Source of the DNA: an uncultured Gammaproteobacteria bacterium
Lineage (GTDB): Bacteria; Pseudomonadota; Gammaproteobacteria; Pseudomonadales; Pseudohongiellaceae
NCBI GenBank assembly: GCA_913060495.1
Contig: CAJXRP010000012.1
Location: 4,092 to 68,091 of the forward strand
Reading direction: 5' to 3'
DNA: 64,000 bases
The position numbers and the translations under genes were made by a program. The notes under the pieces were generated by a model that did not search any database, was not told the origin of the DNA, and saw nothing but the letters and a program-made list of their open reading frames with translations. Positions 15,604 through 49,456 of the stretch are shown one piece after another; within the stretch, counting starts at the first letter, position 1, and each line of letters begins with the position of its first letter.

Positions 15604-16992
15604 TTAATCGCTGTCTTCGGTTAGCCAGTTGAAATCGTCTTCACTCTGATCAAGCAGGTTTGCGCGTTCTCTGCGAGTCTGCTCTTCTTTCTGAGCGGTT
15701 TCCAGAATGTCTGCAGGAATAGCGTCGCCTACTACAATGCCGCGTTTAGTGGTTGGCGCAAAGTAGATTCGGGCGTTTGCCATTTCATCGGTAGTCTCGG
15801 GTCCGTATTCAACGGCGGCCGTGGCATCGGGGTTCCAGCGATTCTGTGTAGAGTTATCGAACCACCAGCTCATGTGCATTACAGAACCGGCCGGCAGGAA
15901 TTTGGGTTCTTGATATTCGTATAAGAACTGCCAATTGAAATCGTAGTCAGGCACCCACAAGAGCGTTTCTCTTTCACCATCGGGATACTCAACCTCGTAG
16001 CGCATCGCCTTACCGCGATAGTGCATGTGTGGGCCCATGGAGAGGAGGTAAATGTCTTCTTCGATTTCGTGTGTGTTGGTTACTTTGTAGTTGGGATCGC
16101 CCGGTGGAATAGTCCAGCCACTGTGAGGAAGCAGGTTCGTTTCCACGACGTGATCGATTACGGTGCCATCTTCATAGAATACGAATCCGGCACGAGTCAT
16201 ATCGGTTACCGCCGTGCCTTCGCCTGGGTCCTTGTGGTAGTGCATGTTCACAGTGATGAACGGATCTTCCGGCATGAGTACGCCCCAGCCTTCGGGATAG
16301 GTAAACGGGCCGCGACCTGGAACGCCAACACCCATATGGCTGGAAACAATGTGATGAACCCAGGGTCCGCCTGGATCGAGCTCAGCCTTGGATACCCACT
16401 TGGGTTCGGTATGCGCGCCTTCAGGAACTGGCATCTGTACGGTAGGTTGCCAATCGAGCACATCATCTTCTACATAGACGGGTCGATCAAATTGAACGAC
16501 TAAATCTGGATCGCCAATCCACCATCCCGAGCTAGGTAAAACTGTGTCGCCTGCCTCGGCGATCAGCCCAGAGTTGTCAGCAGCATCGGAAGGCTTGCCT
16601 TCAAGTGCGCCGCCATCTACCCAGGCTACAAGTGTGGCCAGTTCGGCATCTTCAATATAACGTTCGTCTTTGAACTCGCCGCGATGGCGTTCGTGAGCGC
16701 CCCAGGGTGGCATGTAGCCAGTTATCAATGCGTTCTTGATCATCGGTGCCCAGAGTTTTGCCTGATCGTAGTCGAGCAGAGACATCGGCGCAGTTATGCC
16801 GCCAACTTTGGGGCCGTCTGGTTGGTGACAGGCGACGCAGTTCTTCTGGAATAGAGGAAGTGCATCGGCATAGAACGTGGGTGCCGAATCCTGTGCAGAA
16901 ACTATCCCGGATAATAGTAGTGAGCTGAATCCAGTAAGTAGGGCAGACGCAGGTAGTGCTTTCAAAGCTAGGGAGCGGGTTGTGAGTTTCAT
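15604..16992 (-). CDS. secreted cytochrome c domain fused to PHM/DBH-like type-II copper monooxygenase domain (paralog 1)
   Basis: Signal peptide. FYADALPLFQKNCVACHQPDG is a CxxCH in a PSCyt1-like context. Copper-ligand-like pattern: WVHHIV, MHYHKD, GPHMHYRGKAM, YDFNWQFLYEY, TTDEMANARIYF. Confidence 0.75.
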   Translation of the reverse strand: MKLTTRSLALKALPASALLTGFSSLLLSGIVSAQDSAPTFYADALPLFQKNCVACHQPDGPKVGGITAPMSLLDYDQAKLWAPMIKNALITGYMPPWGAHERHRGEFKDERYIEDAELATLVAWVDGGALEGKPSDAADNSGLIAEAGDTVLPSSGWWIGDPDLVVQFDRPVYVEDDVLDWQPTVQMPVPEGAHTEPKWVSKAELDPGGPWVHHIVSSHMGVGVPGRGPFTYPEGWGVLMPEDPFITVNMHYHKDPGEGTAVTDMTRAGFVFYEDGTVIDHVVETNLLPHSGWTIPPGDPNYKVTNTHEIEEDIYLLSMGPHMHYRGKAMRYEVEYPDGERETLLWVPDYDFNWQFLYEYQEPKFLPAGSVMHMSWWFDNSTQNRWNPDATAAVEYGPETTDEMANARIYFAPTTKRGIVVGDAIPADILETAQKEEQTRRERANLLDQSEDDFNWLTEDSD

Positions 16993-17584: not shown

Positions 17585-18469
17585 CTAGTCGGAGAAGCTG
17601 CCATAGCTCTTCGGGTGAGCTAGTAGCCATTCGACGACCTGCTCTGCGAATGTGTCTGAGAAAGACGGTACGTGCGGACCATCTGCAATAGTCCATAACT
17701 CGCTAGAGCCACCGGCCTTGCATCCTTGATTGAACACCATCACCGAGGATTCATGTCCCTCTAGGTTTTCAACTAAGTCACGTAGTTCACGTTCGGCTGC
17801 TTGAGCCTCACAGCCGTTATATTCGGCCCACTGAGTAACAGTGTCTTTTGCGCTAGGGTAAACGTTGCCGCCAATATCGGCGCCATCGTAGGCTATTGTG
17901 CCATCATTGGTGCCATGAATTTGCAGGATGTGAACTGGATTTTCTGGAGCAGGGCGCATGTCCGCATGGGTAGCACCGGCGAGACTTGCAACTGCTGCGA
18001 TAGTATCGGAGTGATCGTATGCCGCACGGTATGACATGAAGCCACCATTAGAGTGACCTATCAAATAAACGCGATTTGGATCCACATTGAAGTCGGCTTT
18101 TACTTCTTTGATGATGTTAAGTACGTAGGCAGAATCATCAACGTCGGATTGGTAAAAGTTGCAGCACGCGGAAGAAGCATTCCAGAAGCGATTTTCATCT
18201 CCTCCTGCTTCCTTGTCTCCATCGGGAGAGACCAATAGGAAGCCATAGGTGTCGGCAATGGCGCTGAAGCCCATATAGCTGTCCTGACCTGCGCCGCTAG
18301 ATGTGTAGCCGTGAAGGAGGACTATTAGTGGTGCTGGTGTGCCAGCATCATAGTTGGCAGGCACGGTTACGGGAAGCTCGCCGCGGCCTAGGTCGATGGA
18401 TTGCGCTCCCACACTTGCCGAAAATAAGACAAGGACAGTGGCTGTAAGGAGTGTTCGTAGTTTATGCAT
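17585..18469 (-). CDS. secreted esterase, PHB-depolymerase/CE1-like alpha/beta hydrolase
   Basis: Signal peptide MHKLRTLLTATVLVLFSASVGAQS. Has PLIVLLHGYTSSG and the nucleophile motif LIGHSNGGFMS. Confidence 0.85.
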   Translation of the reverse strand: MHKLRTLLTATVLVLFSASVGAQSIDLGRGELPVTVPANYDAGTPAPLIVLLHGYTSSGAGQDSYMGFSAIADTYGFLLVSPDGDKEAGGDENRFWNASSACCNFYQSDVDDSAYVLNIIKEVKADFNVDPNRVYLIGHSNGGFMSYRAAYDHSDTIAAVASLAGATHADMRPAPENPVHILQIHGTNDGTIAYDGADIGGNVYPSAKDTVTQWAEYNGCEAQAAERELRDLVENLEGHESSVMVFNQGCKAGGSSELWTIADGPHVPSFSDTFAEQVVEWLLAHPKSYGSFSD

Positions 18470-19700: not shown

Positions 19701-19713
19701 AATAGGATTGGCT

Positions 19714-20919
19714 ATGAATAGAAGGATGAAGTTTTCGACAGCGCTACTCGCGATTTCTCTGGGCTGCAGCACATTAATTTTTGCACAAGATGCATTCGTT
19801 GCACCGCCTTCTATTACTGAGCCTGTCGTGTTGCCAAGCTTCGAGGTGGGGCAGATTAAAGTTGTGCCCATTGCCACTGGACTCGCGAATCCCTGGGCTA
19901 TGGCGTTTCGTGACAACGGCGACATTCTAGTTACGGAGCGCTACACAGGTAAGCTGCGTGTGATTCGCGATGGCAAACTGCTTGAGCGAGATATCCCCGG
20001 CGTACCCGAAGTTTATTCCGCTGTGTTTCGTGCAGGGCTTATGGCGGTCGCGGTGCATCCCGACGATGACCAGATCGTCTATATGACTTTTACCAAGGCC
20101 ATCATGCACGAGGGCGAACCGAATCAGGCGGTGAGTTTGGTGCGGGGCAGATTGGTTGAAGACAACCTTGAGAACGTGGAAGAGATTTTTGTAGCGAAGG
20201 GCGTCGACAGTGGTATCGCTGCTTCGGCTCTAATGTTTGCACCTGACGGCAAGTTAATGATGTCGGTAGGAGGCTCCTATGTTTTCCTTGGCACTGGGGA
20301 GTATGCCCAAGATCCAGCGGTGCACTATGGCAAGATGCTGCGCCTGAATGCAGATGGAACGGCTCCCGATGATAATCCCTTTGTCGAATCTGGCGAATTT
20401 TTGCCGGAAGTCTATTCAGTGGGTCATCGTAATCAGTTGGGTATCGCGCTGCATCCAGAGACAGGTCAGCTGTGGGCGAGCGAGAATGGTCCGCAGGGTG
20501 GTGATGAGGCGAATATCATTGTGCCGGGCAAGAACTACGGCTGGCCGTTAGCTTCCTATAGCCGAAATTACCGCGGCAATTGGGTGACGCAGACTCCGTG
20601 GCGAGAAGAGTTCGAGAGCCCGACAGTTGTGTGGTGGCCTTCCATAGCGCCTTCGGCTCTAACTTTCTATACGGGAGAGCATTTTCCGAAATGGCAGGGT
20701 AATCTCTTTGTTGGCGCGATGATGGAGGGGCGTATTCCTGGCACCGGTCATTTGCAGCGAATTGTCTTCAATAGTAGAGGAGAAGAGATCCGCCGCGAAA
20801 GCATGCTAACGGAGCTTAAGCACCGTGTAAGGGATGTTATGCAAGGGCCCGATGGTTATCTCTACATCCTCACAGATGAAGAAGACGGCGCATTGCTTCG
20901 TATTGAGCCTGTGAACTAG
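19714..20919 (+). CDS. PQQ-dependent soluble sugar (aldose/sorbosone) dehydrogenase, YliI-like
   Basis: Signal peptide MNRRMKFSTALLAISLGCSTLIFAQ. Has GHRNQLGIALHPETGQLWASENGPQGGDEANII.PGKNYGWP. ATG 19714 with AGGA SD. Confidence 0.9.
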   Translation: MNRRMKFSTALLAISLGCSTLIFAQDAFVAPPSITEPVVLPSFEVGQIKVVPIATGLANPWAMAFRDNGDILVTERYTGKLRVIRDGKLLERDIPGVPEVYSAVFRAGLMAVAVHPDDDQIVYMTFTKAIMHEGEPNQAVSLVRGRLVEDNLENVEEIFVAKGVDSGIAASALMFAPDGKLMMSVGGSYVFLGTGEYAQDPAVHYGKMLRLNADGTAPDDNPFVESGEFLPEVYSVGHRNQLGIALHPETGQLWASENGPQGGDEANIIVPGKNYGWPLASYSRNYRGNWVTQTPWREEFESPTVVWWPSIAPSALTFYTGEHFPKWQGNLFVGAMMEGRIPGTGHLQRIVFNSRGEEIRRESMLTELKHRVRDVMQGPDGYLYILTDEEDGALLRIEPVN

Positions 20920-36605: not shown

Positions 36606-37709
36606 TTAACACGAGCCTGGCATTTCTTCTATCCAGCGGCTTATGAGGTCTATGCCCTCATCGTGTATCAATGATCTGCCAAGTTCAGGCATCATTTCAT
36701 CGGGTTTATCGGAACGCATTCTATATAATAATATTGACTCTTCAGGATGTCCTGGGACTATTGCGTAGCGTAAGTCTCCGGCACCGCCGCCTGCTGCGAC
36801 AGGTGGCTTGCAGACGCCGCGGTTAATAGCGAGGGTCTGAGAGCTGTCGAGAATGAGTCCTGAAGTATCCGCCGCACCTTGCGGATTGTGGCAATGCCCG
36901 CATTGCATATTAAGGTAGGCAAGTGCGCGGTCTTCTAAAGAAGCAGAGGGATCTTGCCAGGATTCGGAGCGTGGAAAATCTTCTACATCACTAATCCAGC
37001 CTCGCGCGACCATTTGCTCAAGAGGTGAAGAGTTGCTGAGTTCGGACTCACTCACAGCTACATTCAGTTGGCTCAAGATCGCGCCAAGTGGGTGCATATC
37101 GCCGTCGGGGTGAACCGTAGTATGGCAGCCAGCGCATTGATTCTCATTGGGTACGAAGTAGGTAAAATTGCTTGGCTCTGCGCTGTCTTGCCCGCTTAAT
37201 GAGATAGGCTTGCTTGCTCCAGCAACCCGCAGAAAGGCTTCGCTCTGCTCATCGTTCCAGACATAGGGAAAAGCATCCCAACCATCGCTCTTGCGGACAA
37301 GCAGCCGTGTCTCTAGCAGTTGATTTTCGTCCAGATTTATCTTTTGCAGTCCGCTATCGGCTATCTTCAGCAAGGCCGTGCCCGATGCGCGGGGATAGTA
37401 AAATGTTTTACTGATTACGGTGCCGACAGGGTAGCTTATTTCACTATCGATGATGTCTGCTTGTAGTCCTTGGGGTATCCACAGCGTGCGCAACTTGTGT
37501 GCGTAGTCTGTGAACAATGGGTTGTTAGGTCGAAAAACTACGCTGGACTCACTGGGGGCGAGTTCGCTGACGTCTACAGAAAATAGCTGCCAATCAGAGA
37601 GGCGCAGCGGCCTTTCGGTTTCATGAAAGACCGGCGACGAGTCCGTGCAAGCGGAAATGAGCAGTAGGTATGCGCCTAAAAACAGAGCGCGGAAAGAGAG
37701 GTCTGTCAT
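36606..37709 (-). CDS. secreted protein with two CxxCH haem-binding motifs (partner of the beta-helix lipoprotein)
   Basis: ATG 37709 overlaps the upstream stop (ATGA). Has an MTDLSFRALFLGAYLLLISAC lipobox-like signal and the motifs CAGCH and CGHCH. Confidence 0.7.
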   Translation of the reverse strand: MTDLSFRALFLGAYLLLISACTDSSPVFHETERPLRLSDWQLFSVDVSELAPSESSVVFRPNNPLFTDYAHKLRTLWIPQGLQADIIDSEISYPVGTVISKTFYYPRASGTALLKIADSGLQKINLDENQLLETRLLVRKSDGWDAFPYVWNDEQSEAFLRVAGASKPISLSGQDSAEPSNFTYFVPNENQCAGCHTTVHPDGDMHPLGAILSQLNVAVSESELSNSSPLEQMVARGWISDVEDFPRSESWQDPSASLEDRALAYLNMQCGHCHNPQGAADTSGLILDSSQTLAINRGVCKPPVAAGGGAGDLRYAIVPGHPEESILLYRMRSDKPDEMMPELGRSLIHDEGIDLISRWIEEMPGSC

Positions 37710-38914
37710 TGACTGCTTAGGCTCATAGAGATCGCTGAGAGTCGAGGAAGTGCGCAATCGTGCGCAGCTGCGTCGAATGACGGTTGAGCGAAACCGTTGC
37801 TGGCATCGAGGGAAACAAAGCTGGTTTCGGCGGATTCAGAAAAGCACAGCGCATCAGCGGCGGTCTTGCCTGGGGATAGCATGCCGTCCCAAACAATGTC
37901 GGGAATGGGCTGTCCGGTTGCAGCCTGCAACAAGCCTAGTGGTTCTGAATCGGGAGTTTCGCCACCTCCCGTATATTGATTATTATGGATGTAGATAGCC
38001 TCTGGGAATGGATCGTAGTTTGGGTCTGTAATCGGTAATTCATTGATCAGATAGCTAACTATAAGTACGTTTGCGCTATTATTGTCTATGAAATTATTTC
38101 CAAACACCTCGATGTTGTCATTAGCCATGATCATTAGGCCGGTGCCTGCTGGCACGCCGGCTACGATGTTGCCTTCGGGTGCGAAGTTAGCAGTGTTGTT
38201 GTCAAAAATTTGGTTGTCATAGACGCGGGTATTTCGACCACCTTGTACAGGGAGGTTGGGTAGATCGAAAACGAGGATGCCGCCAGTATTATTCGTGGTC
38301 ACATTGTCGTGAACATCAGCGAAAGTTGAGTTTTCGATTTCTATGCCCGCAACATTATATTCGGCGCGTGAATTGCGCACGATTATCTGAGAGGACTGCC
38401 CAACGTAGATTCCGGCATCGGAGGCGCCGATGGCTACCGCCTCATCGATCAGCACATTATTCGATTGCACGGGATAGATGCCATAGGCTCCATTCGTGCT
38501 CAGTGGTCCACCAGTCCATTCTGTTCTGACGCGAAGCACCTGTACATTGCTACTCTCGTTGATCTTTATTGCATCGCCGATAGTGTCCTCGATAGCTAGA
38601 TCGCGAATAACAAAATCGTTTGCGCTGACGAGTAGACCTTCTGCTCCCTGCACTTGGTTCTTAAACGAGAGTATGGACTCGTCGATGCCTGCGCCGGCAA
38701 TAGTCACACCGGAGACATTTAGCGAGAGACTGCGCGTGATTTCGTGTACACCAGCAGGGATGGTAATCACATCGCCGGCTTTTGCTTGTATCAATTGCTC
38801 TTGCAGGGCTTCTTCGAAGCTGAGTTCGGGCATGGTGGGTTCTTCATTGCCACAGCTAGCGAGCAGGAGTGCGGCGCCGGCAATCGAGAAAGTTCTTAGT
38901 GTTGAAAATTTCAT
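37706..38914 (-). CDS. parallel beta-helix repeat lipoprotein
   Basis: ATG 38914. MKFSTLRTFSIAGAALLLASCG is a lipobox. Has repeated ~22-aa turns (..NNVLIDEAVAIGASDAGIYVGQS.., ..GIEIENS.., ..GGILVFD..). Confidence 0.75.
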   Translation of the reverse strand: MKFSTLRTFSIAGAALLLASCGNEEPTMPELSFEEALQEQLIQAKAGDVITIPAGVHEITRSLSLNVSGVTIAGAGIDESILSFKNQVQGAEGLLVSANDFVIRDLAIEDTIGDAIKINESSNVQVLRVRTEWTGGPLSTNGAYGIYPVQSNNVLIDEAVAIGASDAGIYVGQSSQIIVRNSRAEYNVAGIEIENSTFADVHDNVTTNNTGGILVFDLPNLPVQGGRNTRVYDNQIFDNNTANFAPEGNIVAGVPAGTGLMIMANDNIEVFGNNFIDNNSANVLIVSYLINELPITDPNYDPFPEAIYIHNNQYTGGGETPDSEPLGLLQAATGQPIPDIVWDGMLSPGKTAADALCFSESAETSFVSLDASNGFAQPSFDAAAHDCALPRLSAISMSLSSQ

Positions 38915-39093
38915 ATTAGTCCCATTGCCTCGAATCCCATCCCCCCATGGCACGGATTTTCGCTAGCAAGCGAGTTCTATTCGTCGGCTGAGTATATGAC
39001 TCTTTATCTAAGCGAGTAAACCGGCAAGCAGACTGGCAGTCTGTGTTGTTGGTGGAGATCTATGGCTATTATTTCGGCAGAGTAGGGAGGGCA

Positions 39094-39160: not shown

Positions 39161-39634
39161 TCAGGGGCGTCTTGGTGTGGCGTTATAGACTGAGTCAGTC
39201 ACGCCTTCCAGCCAGTTTACTTCACCCTCGTAGATTGTTAGCTGCAGCACGTCTTCGTCAGGGTGGGCGCCGTGCCAGTGCTCTCTGCCAGATGGAGTCC
39301 ACCAGGAATCACCAGGGTGCATCTCCAGCAGTGGGCCGCCACGATCCTGCGTAAGGCCACGGCCTTCTTCAACCATTAGGAGTTGGCCCCAAGAATGACT
39401 GTGCCAATTAGAGCGCACACCAGCGGGGAACACCAAGCGCAGCGTGCTGATTGCGTCGCTGTCTTCGACTCGAGGTGATCCGCCCATGAAATTGCTCTGC
39501 TGTGCAGATGTTAGGTTGGCCTGTGTGCCAAGAACTACCCAACCTAAGGCGAGAGCGGCGCAGACCGAGGTTGCTATTTGCAGGGTTGAAGTTTTCTTCT
39601 GTTTTTCGTTGTTATTACCCATTTTTTTCTCCAA
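39161..39634 (-). CDS. secreted cupin-domain protein
   Basis: N-terminal hydrophobic signal. Cupin motifs SNWHSHSWGQLLMVEEG and PSGREHWHGA. Confidence 0.75.
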   Translation of the reverse strand: MEKKMGNNNEKQKKTSTLQIATSVCAALALGWVVLGTQANLTSAQQSNFMGGSPRVEDSDAISTLRLVFPAGVRSNWHSHSWGQLLMVEEGRGLTQDRGGPLLEMHPGDSWWTPSGREHWHGAHPDEDVLQLTIYEGEVNWLEGVTDSVYNATPRRP

Positions 39635-39795
39635 ATTAATTTAGATCTCAACTCGCCTAGAGTTAACCAATGCCCCGGTAATGTCAATAAATCCAAGATT
39701 GGTCCGCTGCGAAGGCTGGTGTTATTCGGCGTACTACTATAGTTTTACCCTATTCGTTGAACCAGAAAAATAGACTAATAATAAATAGAAGTGCG

Positions 39796-40608
39796 ATGAG
39801 TACAGAATTAAATCCCTATCAAGCTCGAGTAAGCTTGCTGCAGCCAGCCCTAGCCTTTGCTGCGCTAGCTATATTCTTGATTGCATCGACTGCCTCGGCG
39901 CAACAAGCCAATCCCCTATCTTCCGATCCGCGAGCAGCGCGCGCAGGTGGTGTGATCTTTCGCGCCCAGTGTGCTACTTGCCATGGAGCCGATGCGAAGG
40001 GTATTAGCAGCATCGATGCTCCCGACCTGACTATGATGTGGACGCAGCAGGGCATGACCGAGGGGCGGGTGTTCACGCGCATCCAAGCAGGTGTGCCCGG
40101 CAGTATTATGCCGTCACACGATTTTCCCGACACTGAGATTTGGATGTTGGTTAGCTATTTGCGCAGTGTGGCAGTCTCCGGATCTACTGGAGAATTTACC
40201 GGGAACTCTGAGAATGGTGGCCGTTTGTTTGCCGCACATTGCATCGAATGTCATCGTGCCGGTAGTGAAGGTGGTAGTTTGGGGCCCAACTTAGTGCGCA
40301 TCACCCAGCGGCGCTCGCAACCGGCACTGCGTAACTCGGTGCGTGATCCAAACTCCAGTATCGGTCGAGGCTATAAACCAGTCGTTCTGAGTACGGCGAA
40401 TGCTGCTGCAATAAGCGGCATCATCAAAGGCGAAGATGCCTTCTCGATTCAGATTCTGGATAGCAATCAGAGGTTGCGCAGTTTTGCGAAGTCCGAGCTG
40501 CTTTCTTCAGATAGAGACGTCGATTCACTTATGCCGGTTTTCTTGGAGAGGCAATTGAGTGAGTCGCAGCTCGACGATATTTTAAGTTTTCTTCATCAGC
40601 AGCGCTGA
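39796..40608 (+). CDS. dihaem c-type cytochrome
   Basis: Signal peptide. Two CxxCH motifs (CATCHGADAKG and CIECHRAGSEG). The second domain has a long insertion before its C-terminal helix. The start is uncertain (ATG 39796 or TTG 39757). Confidence 0.8.
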   Translation: MSTELNPYQARVSLLQPALAFAALAIFLIASTASAQQANPLSSDPRAARAGGVIFRAQCATCHGADAKGISSIDAPDLTMMWTQQGMTEGRVFTRIQAGVPGSIMPSHDFPDTEIWMLVSYLRSVAVSGSTGEFTGNSENGGRLFAAHCIECHRAGSEGGSLGPNLVRITQRRSQPALRNSVRDPNSSIGRGYKPVVLSTANAAAISGIIKGEDAFSIQILDSNQRLRSFAKSELLSSDRDVDSLMPVFLERQLSESQLDDILSFLHQQR

Positions 40609-40622
40609 TAGCGTAGGTAATA

Positions 40623-42275
40623 ATGAATCAATCCCGAGTTTCTCCTCAAATTCTTAGAAGAATGGTCAAAAAGTCGTCGTTTGTGGCATTCGGCCTGCTT
40701 TTTCCTGCTTTAGCTGCGCTGGCACAAGACGATTCGGGCCCAGATTACGGAGATATCCTACAGGGTTTTGCGGATCCATCTCGATGGCTAACCTATTCCG
40801 GCGACTACAGTGGAAAACGCCACAGCCCATTGACGCAAATAAACACAGAAAACGTTGCCTCGCTACGGCCGGTCTGGACCTTTCAAACAGGCACTACGAC
40901 TCGAGGTCGTGGTTTCGAAACGACGCCTCTGATTGACGATGGAGTGCTGTACGTAACGGGGTCAAATAATTATGCGTGGGCAATCGATGCAAAAACAGGG
41001 CGTCGCTTTTGGCAGTATCGACGCAATCTTCCCGACGACCTAACTTATGGTGCGAGCGCTCCGGTTAACAGAGGCTTCGGCATGCTCGGTAATAGCCTGT
41101 TTATGGTGACGCTCGACGCACACCTGTTAGCGTTCGATAGGCGCAATGGCGATATTCTCTGGGATGTAGAGTTAGCAGACTATCGCGTAGGTTACGCGTC
41201 AACCGGTGCCCCACTGGTAATCGATGGCATGGTCATTACCGGCATATCCGGTGGTGAATACGCGACTCGCGGCTTTATTGATGCCTATGATCCCGATACT
41301 GGTGAGCGACTGTGGCGTTTTAATACGATACCTGGGCCCGGTGAGCCTGGCAGTGAGACTTGGCCCGATGATCCTGAAATTTTGGCGAAGGGTGGCGGTG
41401 GCACTTGGATGAACGGTAGTTATGATCCTGAACTGAACCTAATTTACTGGGGAGTGGGCAATCCAAACCCTGATTATTACGGCGATAGCAGGCCTGGAGA
41501 CAATTTGTATTCGAACTCCCTGGTGGCACTTGATGCGGATACCGGAGAATTGCAATGGCACTATCAGTTTACGCCCCATGACTTGAATGATTGGGATTCT
41601 AATCATATGCCGGTATTGGCGGATATTCAGTGGCAGGGTGAACCGCGCAAGGTCGTCATGGTGGGTAATCGCAATGGTTTCTTCTATGTGCTCGACCGCG
41701 TCTCCGGAGAATTTCTGTTGGGCAAGCCGTTTACTGCAACTACTTGGGCGCGAGAAATAGGCGAGGATGGTAGGCCGATAGTGTTGAATGATGGGAGTAA
41801 GGGTTGTTTGCCAGACCCCTGGGGCAGTACCAATTTCATGCCACCTTCATTTTATCCTGAACTAGGCTTGTTCTACCTTACGGCGCGGGAAACCTGTGCA
41901 ACCTTTGTTCCAGAGGAACCCAGTCTAGCGCCCGGACAGGCCTCCTTCGGAGGTGTCGTGTTTATAGATCCGGAGCAGGGCTCTGGGGCTCTGCGTGCTC
42001 TCGATGTGCAGACTGGCGAATTACGCTGGGAATTTACCTATCCCTCTCCAACCTTTGGAGGTGTGCTAACTACGGCTGCAGGGCTGGTATTCGCTGGCGA
42101 TCACGAGGGCAACTTCATGGCCTTTGATGCAGTGAATGGCGAGAACCTCTGGCACTACCAGACCGGATCGCGCATATGGGGAGCAGGGGCGATGACCCAT
42201 GTCCTCGATGGTCGACAATACGTGTTGATACCCTCCGGTACCACGCTCACAGCCTTCGCACTGCCTGAGCGTTAG
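40623..42275 (+). CDS. PQQ-dependent dehydrogenase (methanol/ethanol-family eight-bladed propeller), atypical
   Basis: Signal peptide. Has WLTYSGDYSGKRHSPL, TTPLIDDGVLYV, GISGGEYATRGF, W-repeat blades, and TPHDLNDWDSN (catalytic Asp region). It lacks the vicinal Cys-Cys (GASAPVNRG instead of CCDxVNRG). Confidence 0.9.
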   Translation: MNQSRVSPQILRRMVKKSSFVAFGLLFPALAALAQDDSGPDYGDILQGFADPSRWLTYSGDYSGKRHSPLTQINTENVASLRPVWTFQTGTTTRGRGFETTPLIDDGVLYVTGSNNYAWAIDAKTGRRFWQYRRNLPDDLTYGASAPVNRGFGMLGNSLFMVTLDAHLLAFDRRNGDILWDVELADYRVGYASTGAPLVIDGMVITGISGGEYATRGFIDAYDPDTGERLWRFNTIPGPGEPGSETWPDDPEILAKGGGGTWMNGSYDPELNLIYWGVGNPNPDYYGDSRPGDNLYSNSLVALDADTGELQWHYQFTPHDLNDWDSNHMPVLADIQWQGEPRKVVMVGNRNGFFYVLDRVSGEFLLGKPFTATTWAREIGEDGRPIVLNDGSKGCLPDPWGSTNFMPPSFYPELGLFYLTARETCATFVPEEPSLAPGQASFGGVVFIDPEQGSGALRALDVQTGELRWEFTYPSPTFGGVLTTAAGLVFAGDHEGNFMAFDAVNGENLWHYQTGSRIWGAGAMTHVLDGRQYVLIPSGTTLTAFALPER

Positions 42276-42477: not shown

Positions 42478-43944
42478 ATGACCGCCAGACACTTTCTTGC
42501 ATTCGCTTTATCTCTATTCGCACTAACTGTTTCATCGTCTCTGCTAGCGCAGGCTCACGATGCTAGTGTGGCGAATCATCAGCCGCATTATTATGATTCG
42601 GCAGACTTCGGTATAGATCCTGAGTCGGTGACTTTCGCGGATCATATTGCACCGATCTTGCAGCGCAGCTGTCAGAGCTGCCATCGTCCAGGTGGGGGCG
42701 GGCCTATGGTGTTGATGACTTACGATGAGGTGCGTCCTTGGGCTCCGGTAATTAAGTACCGCACAGCGATACGAGACCGTATGGGAGCTATGCCTCCCTA
42801 CTTTCTCGAAAAGCACATTGGCATAACTCGCATGAAAGACAACTACTCGTTGTCGGATCTAGATTTAGCGATGATTCAGGCCTGGGCAGACAATGGTGCT
42901 CCGCGCGGTAATCCAGAAGATGAGCCGCCTCTCTTGGAATTCGACAGTGGTAATGATTGGACGATTGGCGAGCCGGATCTAATCGTGCGTTCGGGTGACT
43001 TTTCGCGTCCGGCGGTGGGTCCAGATTGGTGGGGTGATATTGGTCTAGTGCCTACGGGTCTTACAGAAGATCGCTACGTTTCCGCGATACAGGTTCGTGA
43101 GGTCAATGATATTCCTGCTGATGGCGACACCGGTACAGTAGGAGGGCGTTATATTGTTCACCACATGACCTATACCAGCGGTGCACTAAGCGAAGACGGA
43201 TCCGAAGTTGTTGGTGATGTAGTGAGCTGGCCTATTCATGAGGTTGGTCGCAATGCGGATATTTTTCCCCAGAAGGCTGGGCGCTTGCTTCCCGCTAATT
43301 CGGCATTGCACCTCGGTGCTACACATATGCATTCAAATGGGCGCGAGACATCGGCCTATGTAGAATTTGGCATCAAGTTCTTCCCTGTAGGCTACGAGCC
43401 TGAATATAGTCGCCGCGGCCCACGCACGGGCAATGGTATCGACATCGATGTGGTGCCGAATAAGGCGAATCAGGAATTTCATAACTATGTTGTTCTGCAG
43501 GAACACACCAAGATTATCGCCTTCGAACCACACCTGCACGCACCGGGCGTGCGCATGTGCATGGAGGCAATTTGGGGCCACAACCAGTTTACGCTGAACT
43601 GTGTTGGTTATGATCATAACTGGGTAAAGCAATACGTTTACGAAGATGACGCGGCACCGCTTCTTCCGAAAGGTACCATATTGCACACTATAGGATTTCT
43701 GGATACTACAACTGCTAATCCTAATCTAGCCGATGCACGAAATTGGGCCGGCGGTGGACGTCGTTCCGTATCTAATATGTTTATCGATCTTGGTTATTCT
43801 GTTTCTCTTACAGAAGAACAGTTTCAGGCAGAGATGGCGACAAGGCGAGCCAATATGAAGGATCGAAACGACTACGATGTGGGCTGCCCTCTATGTTGGG
43901 CACCCGAGTCGGTGGATTCATCGTTAGCGCAGGGAAATGATTAA
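42478..43944 (+). CDS. secreted cytochrome c domain fused to PHM/DBH-like type-II copper monooxygenase domain (paralog 2)
   Basis: Signal peptide. FADHIAPILQRSCQSCHRPGG is a CxxCH. Also has YIVHHMTY, HLGATHMHSNG, EPHLHAPGVRMCME, YDHNWVKQYVYED and SVSNMFIDL. Confidence 0.8.
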   Translation: MTARHFLAFALSLFALTVSSSLLAQAHDASVANHQPHYYDSADFGIDPESVTFADHIAPILQRSCQSCHRPGGGGPMVLMTYDEVRPWAPVIKYRTAIRDRMGAMPPYFLEKHIGITRMKDNYSLSDLDLAMIQAWADNGAPRGNPEDEPPLLEFDSGNDWTIGEPDLIVRSGDFSRPAVGPDWWGDIGLVPTGLTEDRYVSAIQVREVNDIPADGDTGTVGGRYIVHHMTYTSGALSEDGSEVVGDVVSWPIHEVGRNADIFPQKAGRLLPANSALHLGATHMHSNGRETSAYVEFGIKFFPVGYEPEYSRRGPRTGNGIDIDVVPNKANQEFHNYVVLQEHTKIIAFEPHLHAPGVRMCMEAIWGHNQFTLNCVGYDHNWVKQYVYEDDAAPLLPKGTILHTIGFLDTTTANPNLADARNWAGGGRRSVSNMFIDLGYSVSLTEEQFQAEMATRRANMKDRNDYDVGCPLCWAPESVDSSLAQGND

Positions 43945-44921
43945 TGATGACCTTAGTAAAGCTTAGGTTTTCGTGGATGAGCAGTTTATTACTACTTGCC
44001 TTGCTTGTGGGGCAGTCTGCCAATGCTCAGACTCGATTTATGCAGTTGCGAGGTCAGATTACTTCACCTGCATTCGAGGGCTGGTGGCCAAATGAAGATG
44101 GAACATTCAAATTGTTCTTTGGTTACATGAATACAAATTGGGAGCAGCAGTTTGATCTTCCAATTAGCACGGAGAACTATTTCTCCGAGGTAACTCCGGG
44201 AGAACTGGATGATCTAAGTCAGGATGGGTTTGATTTCGCTTCGGCGGACAGGGGGCAACCTACCCATTTCTATCCCCGACGAAATCCCTTTCTGTTTACT
44301 GTAGATGTGCCTGCTGACTTTGGTGAAAGTGAATTGGTATGGACGCTTAAGACCCAGGGCCAGACCAATCGTGCCTACGGCACGCTAAAGCCAGATTATC
44401 GAATCGACCCGCAAGTGATCTCAACTGAGGTAGGCGGTAACTATGGCAGTCTTAGTGATTCCCTTAGAACGAACATCCCTCCGGAGCTGCGTCTCGAGGG
44501 AGAAAGCTTTCGCGCGGTGCGGGTAGGAGAGCCACTGAGTTTGGCGGTTAGGGCGAGTGATCCTGATAATTTGCCAGCACGTCGTGACCGCCCCCGAAGC
44601 CAAGGAATTGATCAGCTGTATAGGCCTCCATCGTCTATCGTGGCTATGAGCGGCCCGGGTTTGCGTTTTTCCTGGACCGTATACCGAGGCCCTGCGGCGA
44701 AGGCGAGTTTCGAGCCGGCACAATTTAAGACTTATACCGATACTAGAATGTATGCGAATTCGCCTTGGGCACCTCCGTTTGAGATCCCTCAGCCGCCAGA
44801 GGATGGACGCTGGACCGCTGAAGTCGTCTTCGATGAGCCGGGAGAATACGTATTGCGCGGTATCGCTAGTGATGGCTCTCTATTTACCTATCAGAACGTT
44901 AACGTTACGGTAAGCCGTTAG
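43944..44921 (+). CDS. secreted hypothetical protein, translationally coupled to the PHM-like gene
   Basis: The ATG shares its A with the upstream TAA (TAATG). Signal peptide ..LLLLALLVGQSANAQ. 325 aa with a beta-rich C-terminus. No family recognised. Confidence 0.65.
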   Translation: MMTLVKLRFSWMSSLLLLALLVGQSANAQTRFMQLRGQITSPAFEGWWPNEDGTFKLFFGYMNTNWEQQFDLPISTENYFSEVTPGELDDLSQDGFDFASADRGQPTHFYPRRNPFLFTVDVPADFGESELVWTLKTQGQTNRAYGTLKPDYRIDPQVISTEVGGNYGSLSDSLRTNIPPELRLEGESFRAVRVGEPLSLAVRASDPDNLPARRDRPRSQGIDQLYRPPSSIVAMSGPGLRFSWTVYRGPAAKASFEPAQFKTYTDTRMYANSPWAPPFEIPQPPEDGRWTAEVVFDEPGEYVLRGIASDGSLFTYQNVNVTVSR

Positions 44922-45181
44922 CGATGCGTGTTTAGCTGGCAGCATAGTACTGCTGTTCGCTGATGCCGCTACCGAGTCCTTCTTTTTCATCCTCCCTCTT
45001 GGTGCTTGCCGATTTCTTCGGTGAGCGCTCGCTTGTTTGTACCTTGATGTGACTCATTGCATTCACTAGTTTGCTGGATTAGTCTGTTTTTACAGCTAGT
45101 GCTGCTAGTTTGGAAATTTACTAGTTAGTGCAGGCCACCCAGAATGCAGTTGCTGAGACTTCTCGGCAGGGAGAGTTAACT

Positions 45182-46261
45182 ATGAACAAGGTGTCTAATA
45201 CTGCGCAGAAAATCCTTCTCGCAATTTGTCTTACTACCGCCTTTTTGAGTGGCGGGTCGGTGTTCGCGCAACTAGAACCCATCAATGATCGACCAAATCC
45301 ATTTTCCACTACGGACAATTGGGCTACTTTGCCAGATGGGCGTACATGGGGTTCAACTGCGGGAGTCGATATGGATCCTGATGGCAGGCACTTATGGGCA
45401 ATCGATCGCTGTGGTGCGAATAGTTGCATCGGTTCTTCGCTAGACCCGATAGTTAAGATAGATGCGAGTGGCAATGTTGTTGCGACGATAGGTGGTGGCT
45501 TAATGTTATTTCCCCATGGCCTTCACGTAGACCGTGACGGCAATATTTGGGTCACAGATGGGCAGGGCCCCCGCGCGGACAATCCTGCGACTGCGGGGAT
45601 GGGACACGTAGTCTACAAATTAAGTCCAGAGGGCGAAGTGTTGTTGATTCTGGGGCAGCCTGGAGTGGCGGGCGACGGAACAGATGCTCTGCTGGAAACC
45701 CCCTGCGACGTAGTTACCGATGCCGACGGCAATATCTATGTGGGTGATGGCCATAGCGGTCAGAACCTCGATGCCACAGTTGATACGGTTGCGCGGATCG
45801 TAAAATTCGATCGCGATGGCAACATGATTAAGTATTGGGGTGGATGGGGGGCTGCGGCTGGGCAGTTAAAGACGCCCCATGCGCTAGATATCGATTCTCG
45901 AAATCGCTTGATAGTGGGTGATAGGGGTAACAATCGTTTGCAGATATTCGATTTGGAAGGTAACTACATAGGCGAATTTAAATCCTTCAGCCGGCCTAGC
46001 GGAATCTACATTACCGACAATGACACGATCTTTGTCGCCGATTCGGAATCGGAATTCGATGACATAAGAAACCCAGGTTGGCACGCGGGTATCCGTGTGG
46101 GCAGTCTGTTAGATGGCATTGTGGATTACTTCATAGATGGAACGGTGGAGGCCTATCCTGAGGGTTCAAATCCGGAAGGCGTTGCTGTGGATTCTGCTGG
46201 CAATGTATTTGGTGCGGTGGTGTCGGGTGGCGGCGCTCTGGTGAAGTCTGCGCGTCGCTAG
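45182..46261 (+). CDS. secreted NHL-repeat six-bladed propeller, peptidyl-alpha-hydroxyglycine lyase (PAL)-like
   Basis: ATG 45182 with a GGGAGAG SD. Signal peptide MNKVSNTAQKILLAICLTTAFLSGGSVFAQ. Blade motifs: FPHGLHVDRDGNIWVTD, ARIVKFDRDGN..YWG, GQLKTPHALDID, VGDRGNNRLQIFD. Confidence 0.8.
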   Translation: MNKVSNTAQKILLAICLTTAFLSGGSVFAQLEPINDRPNPFSTTDNWATLPDGRTWGSTAGVDMDPDGRHLWAIDRCGANSCIGSSLDPIVKIDASGNVVATIGGGLMLFPHGLHVDRDGNIWVTDGQGPRADNPATAGMGHVVYKLSPEGEVLLILGQPGVAGDGTDALLETPCDVVTDADGNIYVGDGHSGQNLDATVDTVARIVKFDRDGNMIKYWGGWGAAAGQLKTPHALDIDSRNRLIVGDRGNNRLQIFDLEGNYIGEFKSFSRPSGIYITDNDTIFVADSESEFDDIRNPGWHAGIRVGSLLDGIVDYFIDGTVEAYPEGSNPEGVAVDSAGNVFGAVVSGGGALVKSARR

Positions 46262-46614: not shown

Positions 46615-46840
46615 CCTCTAGGCCTAAAAATTTGATCATTACCTTGTTTTATATCTAATCATAGTAGGTAGCGGCAACAAACAATAAGTTTTAAAGGCTA
46701 TTTTTAACACCTGCCTATAGGCGAGGCGCAGGTGGAGGTAAGATGGCAGGACAGAAATTAGGGGTGTAACTAGCCAGCGGCTTTAGAGAGTAAAATAAAC
46801 AGAGAAATAGTTAACTTGAACAGTTAAAGGATTGCCAAGA

Positions 46841-47236
46841 ATGAAGGTAAAAAAGGGCTACAAGCAATTAGTTGCTGAGGCAGAGCAGCAGATACAAACG
46901 ATAGATTCCTCCGCATTAAAGGCGCGGCTGGAGAATTTGGACGAGTCGGTGGTTATTATCGATCTACGGGACGTTCGTGAGGTTAAGCGCGAAGGCAAGA
47001 TTCCCGGTTCGCTGCACATTCCTCGAGGCATGCTGGAGTTTTGGGTAGATCCCGATAGCCCTTACTATCGCACCGAGTTCGATAAGGCACAGGAGTTGGT
47101 CCTCTATTGCAACAAAGGCTGGCGTTCAGCGCTGTCGGCACAATCGCTGCAGAATATGGGTATCGAGAGTGTCGTGCATCTAAAGGGTGGCATGGAACAG
47201 TGGCAGAAAGACGATGGTACTGTTGAAACGAATTAA
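46841..47236 (+). CDS. rhodanese-like domain protein (sulfurtransferase)
   Basis: Active-site loop YCNKGWRS (CxxxxR). ATG 46841 with AAGGA SD. Confidence 0.85.
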   Translation: MKVKKGYKQLVAEAEQQIQTIDSSALKARLENLDESVVIIDLRDVREVKREGKIPGSLHIPRGMLEFWVDPDSPYYRTEFDKAQELVLYCNKGWRSALSAQSLQNMGIESVVHLKGGMEQWQKDDGTVETN

Positions 47237-47313
47237 ATACGCCGTGAGGTGGACGCTAGCAGTGGACTCTAGCTATGATGTTGCGACCAATTAAAGGCGC
47301 GAGGACAGCGGCT

Positions 47314-48396
47314 ATGAAGACTAAAACTAATATGAGCGGTATATCGGCAATGCTTAGCCGGCGCACTCTCCTTAAGGCAATTCCAGCCCTCTCATTCAGT
47401 CCGGTAGTATTTGCACAACCGACGGCTTCGATAGCAGTGCGTAAATTGCACAGCTATGGCATGCGCGTATCGAATGTAGAGCGATCGGTGAAGTTCTATC
47501 AAGAATTGTTCGGTGCAAGTATCCAGTCGCGACAAGGAGACACTGTCTGTTTGCGAATTGGTGAAGGGCCAAGATTCTTCTCTCTTTCCCCACTACTGCC
47601 AGGGCAACAGCCCGGCTTTAGTCATATTGGTCTCAGCGTCGAAGATTTCGATCTGGAGTCGGTGCGCGATCAGCTCGATGCTTTCGGCGTATCCCGTCGG
47701 GCTGACCCAGGTCCAAATGAGGCTTCTCTCGACATTGCCATGCAGTCTTGGACGAGGACGCGCGGACAGAATGAAGGCGGGTCTGCATCGGGGACTGAGG
47801 AGTTATTTTTCGCAGACATCGAGGGTCTAATTTATCAGCTCTCTGGCACGAATCACTGCGGTGGAGCGGGTGAGTTTGGAGCAGTTTGTGAGCGGGTGGA
47901 AGCGTCATCAGCGGATGGCATGTTTCGCACTGTTGATCTCAGTCACTTTACAAATTTTTTAGCCAATAAAGACCGTGCGAATGAATTCTATACGCGTACC
48001 TTCGGGTTGGGTTTTCAAGCTTATCAGGGACCTGCATCACCGATTGTTGGGGTAGGCGATGGCATTCAGTTTCTAATGTATGTGGGTGGCGATCAGGCAG
48101 GGGCACCGACTGCACCAGCTCGAGTAGATCACGTTTGCCTCAGCATTGAGGACTTTGATGTGGATGGCATTATTGCGAAGCTCGAAGATTATGGCTTCAC
48201 CGCTAGAGAGGACGCGTCTGATACGCCTCCGCTGGTACATTGGATTAGCATGCGCATGCCGAATCGTGGCGGCATTGAGGGCGGAACACCTGAGGTCTAT
48301 TTTTCAGACCCCGATGGAATACGAATTCAACTGCAGGATGCCGTGTACTGTGGCGGCGGCGGATATCTCGGAGACGATTGCAGTGCGCCTGTCTAA
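47314..48396 (+). CDS. VOC (glyoxalase/extradiol-dioxygenase fold) family protein with twin-arginine signal
   Basis: Tat-type signal ..MLSRRTLLKAIPALSFSPVVFAQP. Has repeated VOC modules (HSYGMRVSNVERSVKFY.., FSHIGLSVEDFD, VDHVCLSIEDFD). ATG 47314 with GAGGA SD. Confidence 0.8.
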   Translation: MKTKTNMSGISAMLSRRTLLKAIPALSFSPVVFAQPTASIAVRKLHSYGMRVSNVERSVKFYQELFGASIQSRQGDTVCLRIGEGPRFFSLSPLLPGQQPGFSHIGLSVEDFDLESVRDQLDAFGVSRRADPGPNEASLDIAMQSWTRTRGQNEGGSASGTEELFFADIEGLIYQLSGTNHCGGAGEFGAVCERVEASSADGMFRTVDLSHFTNFLANKDRANEFYTRTFGLGFQAYQGPASPIVGVGDGIQFLMYVGGDQAGAPTAPARVDHVCLSIEDFDVDGIIAKLEDYGFTAREDASDTPPLVHWISMRMPNRGGIEGGTPEVYFSDPDGIRIQLQDAVYCGGGGYLGDDCSAPV

Positions 48397-48439
48397 GTGC
48401 TGTGTTTGATTATTATTGATTGTAGTAAGAGGGAGTAGT

Positions 48440-49456
48440 ATGGAGCATCGATATATTGGAAAGAGCGGATTAAGAGTTAGCCCTATTTGCATGGGGACTA
48501 TGAGTTTTGGTAGTTGGAGCGATAAGAAGGAGTCGTTCAAGATTCTTGAAGAGTCCTATGAGCGTGGTATTAACTTTTTCGATACGGCGGAAGTCTATCC
48601 AGTCCCTCCATCGGCAGAGACTGTCGGTGTAACGGAGCAGATCTTCGGCGAATGGGTTCAGACCAAGCCCAGAGACTCGCTAATCATCGCGACTAAGGTT
48701 GCAGGAGCGGCTGCAGGATGGTTTGTTCCGCCTATCCGCCATGGCCTGACGGCTATCGACAGATTCCATATCGAAACGGCAGTAGAAGGGTCTCTACGTA
48801 GAATGCAGATCGATTATATCGATCTTTATCAGGTGCATTGGCCTGATCCCATCGTGCCTATAGATGAGTCAATGGAGGCGCTAGATAGATTGGTGCAGGC
48901 AGGTAAGGTGAGATATGTCGGAACTTCCAACGAAAATGCCTACGGTTTGACTAAGGCGAACACCGTCGCTGACTATGAAGGCTTGGCTCGATTTCAGTCT
49001 ATTCAGAATAATTTCTCGCTATTGAATCGCCGCTTCTTGGATGAGTTGGCGGAGGTATGTAAAAGGGAGCATGTATCACTCTTGCCGTATTCTCCAATTG
49101 GCGGCGGTGTTCTCAGTGGTAAGTACAATCAGCCAGAGGTTCCAAAAAATTCGCGCTTCGCGGAATACGGTTCCGCAGACCCTAGACAGAAAGCTATGTC
49201 TGCTCGGTTTGTGAACGAAGGAACCTTGGCGTCTACTGCTAAGTACATGGAAATTGCGAAAGAATTAGGCATGTCCCCGGTGACTCTAGCTACGGCTTGG
49301 AGCATGAATTTTGATTTTGTCGCATCGACAATTATTGGTGCGCGAACTGCTGATCAGTTGAAAGAGTCGTTAGCGGCCCTCGATGTAACACTTAGCGATG
49401 AGACAATGAAGCAGTGCGATGAAGTACATAAGCAAATTCTCTATCCGATGGGCTAG
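48440..49456 (+). CDS. NADP(H)-dependent aldo/keto reductase (Tas-like)
   Basis: Has MEHRYIGKSGLRVSPICMGTMSFG, GINFFDTAEVY, IDLYQVHWPD and GTSNE. Confidence 0.9.
   Translation: MEHRYIGKSGLRVSPICMGTMSFGSWSDKKESFKILEESYERGINFFDTAEVYPVPPSAETVGVTEQIFGEWVQTKPRDSLIIATKVAGAAAGWFVPPIRHGLTAIDRFHIETAVEGSLRRMQIDYIDLYQVHWPDPIVPIDESMEALDRLVQAGKVRYVGTSNENAYGLTKANTVADYEGLARFQSIQNNFSLLNRRFLDELAEVCKREHVSLLPYSPIGGGVLSGKYNQPEVPKNSRFAEYGSADPRQKAMSARFVNEGTLASTAKYMEIAKELGMSPVTLATAWSMNFDFVASTIIGARTADQLKESLAALDVTLSDETMKQCDEVHKQILYPMG

Follow-up and report, generated by a model that had tools for sequence, protein, structure and literature searches.

We analysed a 64,000-nucleotide stretch of DNA (hereafter the window) from an uncultured gammaproteobacterium of the Pseudohongiellaceae (assembly GCA_913060495.1, contig CAJXRP010000012.1, positions 4,092 to 68,091), concentrating on three consecutive genes, referred to as A, B and C. 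By profile comparison and structure prediction, the product of gene A is a c-type haem domain fused to a domain like that of peptidylglycine alpha-hydroxylating monooxygenase (PHM) and dopamine beta-hydroxylase (DBH), with all six copper ligands kept. Gene B is its translationally coupled partner, and a set of redox genes recurs around the pair. We lean towards the view that A is a periplasmic copper monooxygenase, which would be reduced by its tethered cytochrome c and not by ascorbate. Gene C encodes a protein like PAL (the alpha-amidating lyase of peptidyl-alpha-hydroxyglycine), which with PHM makes up the animal peptide-amidating enzyme PAM; it is a separate, lineage-specific neighbour and not part of the A-B system. 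What is new here is that a gene pair labelled 'cytochrome c' or 'hypothetical protein' in public records is placed in the PHM/DBH superfamily, with an obligate partner, B, and a conserved redox neighbourhood.

42478..43944, plus strand: gene A, 488 amino acids; secreted mono-haem cytochrome c domain (residues ~50-140) followed by a copper domain of predicted PHM/DBH fold in two lobes (~165-445)
43944..44921, plus strand: gene B, 325 amino acids; secreted, two predicted beta-sandwich domains of Ig-like type, coupled to A in translation
45182..46261 (alternative start 45128), plus strand: gene C, 359 (377) amino acids; secreted PAL-like NHL propeller of six blades

The three open reading frames (ORFs) have the coordinates that a sequence-only reading of the window had given them, all on the plus strand, and each begins with a Sec-type signal peptide, as judged by eye from the sequence. 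The translational coupling proposed in that reading was also confirmed: in the stop/start overlap TAATG at 43942-43946, the TAA of A shares bases with the ATG of B.

Gene A and the PHM/DBH superfamily

The structure of A was modelled with AlphaFold2 (pLDDT 77), and the model was compared with the PDB using Foldseek. The top 30 matches were all human DBH or rat PHM (E 1.8e-7 to 5.7e-5, probability 1.0), aligned over 264-380 columns covering both lobes. A further PHM chain was found at rank 32 (E 3.1e-4), and the matches that followed DBH and PHM were unrelated cupins with a probability below 0.25. A superfamily profile was assembled from A, a paralogue of A in the window (A', described below) and 84 diverse representatives, 86 sequences in all. 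In hmmsearch against the PDB this profile matched PHM (1.1e-9) and DBH (3.7e-9), with cytochromes as the sole other matches. Alignment of the profile with rat PHM by hhalign, using a sequence checked against 1SDW, gave 96.3 % and E = 2e-9 over 261 columns. The fusion of haem c to a PHM-like domain, as suggested in the sequence-only reading, is borne out by all three comparisons.

The relationship of A to PHM became visible only once this diverse profile had been built from a search for representatives. Pfam and NCBIfam scans of A gave a weak cytochrome match only (Cytochrome_CBB3, residues 57-108, 23.4 bits against a threshold of 27), and the thresholds of PF01082 and PF03712 were not reached. 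PHM was not found in the PDB by phmmer with either A or A', nor by a profile of the A family alone, while hhalign of a shallow A1 profile with PHM returned a probability of 0.3 and an alignment out of register. Among the 86 superfamily members, 48 matched Cu2_monoox_C (PF03712) at E <= 0.01. As Pfam finds this domain in some bacterial relatives, its occurrence in bacteria is not itself new. No characterised bacterial enzyme joining cytochrome c to a PHM-like domain was found in the literature, of which the searchable text is incomplete, so that an earlier description is possible.

Homologues of A number more than 6,689, and near-full-length homologues more than 6,000, from marine Gammaproteobacteria, Gemmatimonadota and soil Acidobacteriota. 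Members of the A family are 65-94 % identical across these three phyla, which implies that A is strongly constrained in function. The positions in A that may bear on its chemistry are as follows.

42670..42684, plus strand: haem c attachment motif, Cys65-Gln-Ser-Cys68-His69; Cys, Cys and His invariant in 86/86 superfamily sequences
42790..42792, plus strand: Met105 (GAMPP), candidate axial haem ligand; invariant in 86/86, inside an invariant MPP
43159..43164, plus strand: His228-His229, equivalent to PHM CuH H107/H108; in the columns of PHM VHH in both hmmsearch and hhalign
43324..43326, plus strand: His283, equivalent to PHM CuH H172; column aligned with PHM LQVHY
43531..43539, plus strand: His352-Leu-His354, equivalent to PHM CuM H242/H244; aligned with PHM VHTHH
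43777..43779, plus strand: Met434, equivalent to PHM CuM M314; superfamily DEM aligned with PHM SDEMC by hhalign
43885..43896, plus strand: CPLC motif, Cys470-Pro-Leu-Cys473 (CPLCW); specific to the A family and nearly invariant in it, not a haem site, absent from A'

The six copper-ligand residues were present in 85 of the 86 superfamily sequences and in 44/44 of the A family. In the hhalign alignment the superfamily HH was paired with H107/H108, HY with H172, HxH with H242/H244, an invariant Gln with Q272 and DEM with M314. The motifs listed for A in the sequence-only reading (FADHIAPILQRSCQSCH, VHHM, HLGATHMH, PHLHAPG, YDHNWVKQYVY and SNMF) were all found, and its copper-ligand assignments are correct because they fall in the same alignment columns as the PHM ligands H107, H108, H172, H242, H244 and M314. 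In the cytochrome domain both the CxxCH and the distal Met of a class I-type cytochrome c are present, and the occurrence of such a domain in 86/86 sequences suggests a protein electron donor instead of ascorbate. We can reasonably infer, as had been proposed for A, that the tethered cytochrome c takes the place of ascorbate.

The residues with which PHM binds peptidylglycine are changed in A. In PHM the carboxylate and backbone of the substrate are bound by R240 (carboxylate), N316 and Y318; the corresponding residues of A are E350, I436 and L438, none of which varies within the A family, and on this comparison the substrate of A is probably not a glycine-extended peptide. A thus shares with PHM, DBH and tyramine beta-monooxygenase, the copper type II ascorbate-dependent monooxygenases (PF01082/PF03712), a two-lobe beta-sandwich fold, the CuH His-His...His and CuM His-x-His...Met ligands in like order and at similar spacing, and the Gln equivalent to PHM Q272. 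It differs in being bacterial and periplasmic, in carrying an N-terminal c-type cytochrome, soluble ascorbate being the reductant of the eukaryotic enzymes, in having an obligate second gene, in lacking the peptidylglycine-binding residues and in falling under the Pfam thresholds.

A PHM scaffold might also serve a redox protein that is not a substrate monooxygenase, acting as a cytochrome c-linked oxidase, in the handling of peroxide or copper, or in electron transfer for the pyrroloquinoline quinone (PQQ)-dependent dehydrogenase encoded nearby. Such a role would fit the fusions to AhpC-TSA/redoxin domains in 22 of the 86 superfamily relatives, the conserved C-terminal CPLC of the A family, and the departures of A from the superfamily consensus beside the ligands (Tyr to Met284, Arg to Pro356, Phe to His380 and Glu to Asn433); the tight association with cytochromes would suit pure electron transfer as well. 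Together with the redoxin fusions, the CPLC motif raises the possibility that thiol chemistry, for copper insertion or in the form of a redox-active disulfide, recurs as an accessory function. A nevertheless retains the full CuM His-His-Met set and the Gln aligned with Q272, and this set is the hallmark of the O2-activating site in the PHM/DBH family; we know of no precedent for the fold as an electron carrier only. The obligate partner and the outer-membrane receptor genes found upstream of A (see below) also suggest a specific imported substrate. We regard a redox role of this kind as unlikely.

Genomic linkage of A, B and C

Linkage was assessed in 80 loci containing an A orthologue, taken from GTDB species representatives together with flanking sequence of at most 10 kb, onto which the window proteins were mapped. 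B lay directly 3' of A in 71 of 72 loci (33/34 in Gammaproteobacteria, 10/10 in Gemmatimonadota and 28/28 in Acidobacteriota). An orthologue of C was directly 3' of B in 2 of 69 loci, both belonging to the window's closest relatives (92-94 % identity). Within 10 kb of A-B it was found in 11 of 28 gammaproteobacterial loci, all Pseudohongiella-like, and in 0/8 Gemmatimonadota and 0/22 Acidobacteriota loci. Conservation of the neighbourhood, to which the sequence-only reading had looked for its three-gene set, was therefore observed for A with B and not for C. The loci most closely related to that of the window carry the annotation Pseudohongiella or Pseudohongiellaceae, which places the window in a marine gammaproteobacterium of this group.

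In several Acidobacteriota loci (L056, L061, L063, L084, L087 and L088), second, divergent A-like and B-like pairs adjoin the main A-B pair, with 38-53 % and 32-48 % identity, respectively. The two-gene unit has therefore been duplicated and has diversified together.

The 4,596 homologues of B are, every one, named hypothetical. B had been described as belonging to no recognisable family, and indeed had no match in Pfam, NCBIfam or the PDB sequences. Its AlphaFold2 model (pLDDT 70, pTM 0.45) shows two Ig-like beta-sandwich domains with long loops between them, for which Foldseek returned generic Ig-like matches only. Among 86 B homologues (32-89 % identity), aromatic, Arg and Asp residues are conserved at many positions, but His at only one, and clusters of Cys or Met are absent. 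A function as copper chaperone was considered and dropped, given the single His and the absence of a Cys/Met cluster. B probably serves A as a subunit or by presenting the substrate, and not as a metallochaperone.

Gene C matched Pfam NHL at 4.5e-21. Its family profile aligned with rat PAL (sequence checked against 3FVZ) at 99.2 % and E = 6e-20 in hhalign, with 33 % identity over 260 columns and all six blades, C residues 32-345 being matched to PAM residues 502-799. In hmmsearch the PAL match was one collinear stretch of 84 bits, and PAL was the only PDB entry with a long collinear alignment. TRIM71 and Thin scored higher in total in the PDB search, because each of their six repeats is matched by a single canonical blade of C (residues 208-269); the possibility that C is a generic NHL protein was rejected, the alignment with PAL being single and collinear. 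The Zn ligands H585 and H690 and the residue R706 of PAL are kept in C as H112, H233 and R248, respectively, whereas the catalytic and Zn-binding Tyr654 is replaced by His191, the Zn ligand His786 by Glu332 and the Ca ligand Asp787 by Gly333, changes that are fixed in the C family. Both the blade-by-blade resemblance to PAL and the changes at Tyr654 and His786, which the sequence-only reading had noted as a caveat, were thus reproduced against 3FVZ. On these alignments C is a PAL-like propeller in which the metal and catalytic site is altered. None of its 7,559 homologues is named PAL in public sources, and its genetic link to a PHM-like gene is confined to one bacterial family.

Comparison of the Pseudohongiella-group loci accounts for the position of C in the window. 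The order in this group is beta-helix, cupin, cytochrome c, PQQ dehydrogenase, A, B, a variable cassette, the NHL gene (C), a small ORF, rhodanese, VOC/glyoxalase and aldo-keto reductase. The cassette usually consists of genes for a TAXI-TRAP binding protein and a DctM permease, and is made up of other genes in locus L011. It is missing from the window (between 44921 and 45182) and from loci L009 and L010. The adjacency of B and C in the window thus results from the missing cassette and not from a conserved operon. Locus L013 retains the whole synteny with the NHL gene absent. The spacer from B to the ATG of C is 260 bp, the length previously estimated, and it contains a hairpin.

45001..45029, plus strand: terminator-like hairpin between B and C; 12-bp stem with 6 GC pairs, then a T-rich tail; consensus match only

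The sequence-only reading had taken A, B and C as a split, bacterial form of PAM, in which C would be a PAL-like lyase releasing amide and glyoxylate, and B an accessory. The PHM fold and ligands of A are consistent with this, as are the collinearity of C with PAL over six blades and its conserved H585, H690 and R706 equivalents. The three genes are adjacent on one strand in the window and its two closest relatives, C remains within 10 kb in the 11 of 28 Pseudohongiella-like loci mentioned above, and in one genome an amidase gene immediately precedes A-B. However, C adjoins B in only 2/69 loci and is absent from the vicinity of A-B in the other two phyla. When C-family genes were looked up independently their neighbours were unrelated, and on one 3.58-Mb contig the C orthologue (2.153 Mb) was ~280 kb away from A-B (2.436 Mb). 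Synteny is retained without C in L013, the hairpin separates B from C, and no precursor-peptide gene is evident. At the residue level, the peptidylglycine-binding R240, N316 and Y318 of PHM are changed in A, and Tyr654, His786 and Asp787 of PAL have become His, Glu and Gly in C. A split PAM is very improbable on this evidence. The side-by-side arrangement of PHM-like and PAL-like genes in the window is a local accident of gene order and not evidence for bacterial peptide amidation of the PAM type.

No bacterial PAM was found in the literature, the searchable text of which is incomplete, leaving an earlier description possible. For C-terminal amides of bacterial ribosomally synthesized and post-translationally modified peptides, the only bacterial enzymes cited beside eukaryotic PAM in one 2026 paper (PMC12912966) are MicC, an alpha-ketoglutarate non-haem iron enzyme, and MovX, an MNIO.

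Redox genes around the A-B pair

Upstream of A, the window carries three genes that the sequence-only reading had missed as conserved partners of the pair.

39161..39634, minus strand: cupin, secreted; related to GtHNL, the Mn-dependent hydroxynitrile lyase of Granulicella tundricola; recurs near A-B
39757..40608, plus strand: dihaem cytochrome c; Pfam Cytochrom_C in two matched stretches, TIGR02603 at 86.7 bits, over the cut-off
40623..42275, plus strand: PQQ-dependent dehydrogenase of the methanol/ethanol family; TIGR03075 at 520 bits (cut-off 480), Pfam PQQ 3e-89

Of 27 gammaproteobacterial loci, 25 have the cupin, cytochrome c and PQQ genes close to A-B, and these genes recur elsewhere in other orders. 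In Gemmatimonadota the order is cytochrome c, PQQ, A, B and cupin, and in the Acidobacteriota locus L074 it is a gene for a TonB-receptor-like outer-membrane protein, then A, B, cupin and a cytochrome c-PQQ fusion. The cupin is found near A-B in all three phyla. The PQQ gene, found in 25/27 gammaproteobacterial loci, is present in 3/9 Gemmatimonadota and 4/20 Acidobacteriota loci. Scored against TIGR04528, the PQQ dehydrogenase reached 520 bits, under the cut-off of 650. The dihaem cytochrome c is likely to be the electron carrier of the module.

The nearest solved relatives of the cupin are the structures of GtHNL (4BIF/4UXA), with which it aligned at E = 9e-18 over the whole barrel, and the metal motif HxHxxxQ...H is conserved. 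Unlike GtHNL, the window cupin is secreted and encoded within a redox gene cluster, and against the NCBIfam (R)-mandelonitrile lyase model NF049940 it scored 95 bits, under the equivalog cut-off of 140. In one alternative reading the lyase partner would be the cupin instead of the NHL protein, with A forming an unstable alpha-hydroxylated intermediate (a carbinolamine, a hemiaminal or a cyanohydrin-like compound), which a GtHNL-like Mn cupin would cleave. Outside the Gammaproteobacteria no other neighbour of A-B is kept as often as the cupin, which stands directly after B in Gemmatimonadota and in several Acidobacteriota loci, and a rhodanese gene is syntenic downstream in the gammaproteobacterial loci. 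On the other hand, the score falls under the mandelonitrile lyase cut-off, cupins are functionally very diverse, and to our knowledge no natural function is established for GtHNL itself. We judge such a cleavage quite unlikely, and hold it equally doubtful that the two proteins form a functional analogue of PHM plus PAL assembled from unrelated parts.

Genes of possible relevance to transport were also found near A-B. TonB-dependent receptor-like genes (CarboxypepD_reg plus beta-barrel) are located upstream of A, directly in L002 and L003 and one ORF off in L074. These Acidobacteriota outer-membrane receptor genes suggest active import of the substrate through the outer membrane. In 23 gammaproteobacterial loci, genes for a TAXI-type TRAP solute-binding protein and a fused DctM permease are found 3' of B and before the NHL gene (for example L012, L019, L026, L032 and L038, at about 12.5-17.5 kb). 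The cassette hints that the product of the pathway is an organic acid taken into the cell.

Several other neighbours were recorded. At 36606-38953 on the minus strand, a two-gene pair matches TIGR03806 (dihaem cytochrome c of the SO2930 family, 331 bits) and TIGR03805 (parallel beta-helix protein, 409 bits); it adjoins the cupin and is syntenic only in gammaproteobacterial loci. Downstream, genes for a rhodanese-domain protein (46832-47236), a secreted two-domain protein of the VOC/glyoxalase fold (47275-48396) and an aldo-keto reductase (48416-49456) are syntenic in many gammaproteobacterial loci. The amidase-signature gene (PF01425) mentioned above is 116 bp upstream of A-B in L092 (4305-8465, on a 3.58-Mb contig), where an 80-amino-acid ORF overlaps the end of B. 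This amidase, a single case, could bear on the substrate class.

A model for A-B, and the paralogue A'

If A is a copper monooxygenase, CuH (His228, His229 and His283) would be the electron-transfer site and CuM (His352, His354 and Met434) the O2-activating site. The N-terminal His/Met-ligated c-type cytochrome domain would hand electrons singly to CuH, replacing ascorbate. Acting with B inside a periplasmic oxidation module, A would hydroxylate an imported organic compound, its substrate, at a C-H bond. The PQQ dehydrogenase, the cupin or both could then process the hydroxylated product, the cupin perhaps cleaving or converting an unstable intermediate, and electrons from the dehydrogenase would return to A through the cytochromes. 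In the gammaproteobacterial genomes the TRAP transporter would import the acidic product, and in Acidobacteriota the outer-membrane receptor would import the substrate. A broader proposal, that A-B is the catalytic core of a hitherto unrecognised, very widespread bacterial system for periplasmic C-H hydroxylation coupled to the PQQ dehydrogenase, with the GtHNL-like cupin as lyase in the place of PAL, is conceivable but not probable.

Several observations weigh against A as a cytochrome-fed monooxygenase. Pfam recognises neither A nor a profile restricted to the A family, and PHM is found with neither of them in the PDB, so that the link to PHM rests on transitive homology and a predicted structure. 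The residue changes beside the ligands of A could signify altered chemistry. The model of B is modest in confidence and gives no functional clue. Finally, the association with cupin, cytochrome and PQQ genes is mainly gammaproteobacterial, given its frequency in Gemmatimonadota (3/9) and Acidobacteriota (4/20).

Two known systems resemble the one proposed. Copper nitrite reductases to which a cytochrome c is tethered (for example PDB 2ZOO) share the design of A, a periplasmic copper enzyme with its donor in cis. Their copper fold is unrelated, a cupredoxin trimer as opposed to the PHM beta-sandwich, and they reduce nitrite where A would activate O2, so that the likeness is an analogy only. Particulate methane monooxygenase (pMMO) has been proposed to couple with PQQ methanol dehydrogenase via cytochrome c, whereby oxidation of the product could refund the electrons of hydroxylation. 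In both the pMMO system and the A-B module a copper monooxygenase, putative in the case of A, is found alongside a PQQ dehydrogenase and c-type cytochromes. However, pMMO is a membrane enzyme of unrelated fold, and for the A-B module the coupling is suggested by gene neighbourhood alone. If it holds, the module would run a soluble, ascorbate-free, redox-neutral cycle of hydroxylation followed by dehydrogenation.

Studies of PHM, DBH and related proteins have treated them as eukaryotic enzymes that depend on ascorbate, and the path by which electrons reach CuH and pass on to CuM is still debated. For work on this electron transfer, a soluble bacterial homologue to which the donor is fused in cis would be a tractable system. 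Discovery of the substrate would explain an abundant, strongly conserved and unannotated gene pair of marine and soil bacteria.

The window contains a second member of the superfamily, for which 11,213 cluster representatives were found at E <= 1e-3.

15604..16992, minus strand: gene A', paralogue of A; 26 % identity to A, BLASTP E = 1e-29

The sequence-only reading had located this paralogue correctly; its strand is here corrected to minus. A' scored 17.8 bits against Pfam Cu2_monoox_C, under the threshold of 23, and its best PDB sequence match, to the cytochrome domain of 2ZOO, was non-significant (E = 0.033). It has no B-like partner. A' lies tail to tail with a plus-strand gene at 13475-15502 for a NosR/NapH-like membrane protein, the domains of which are of the FMN-binding and 4Fe-4S ferredoxin types. 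Also nearby, at 17585-18469 and 19708-20919, are genes for a PHA-depolymerase-type esterase and a sorbosone-dehydrogenase-like propeller, respectively.

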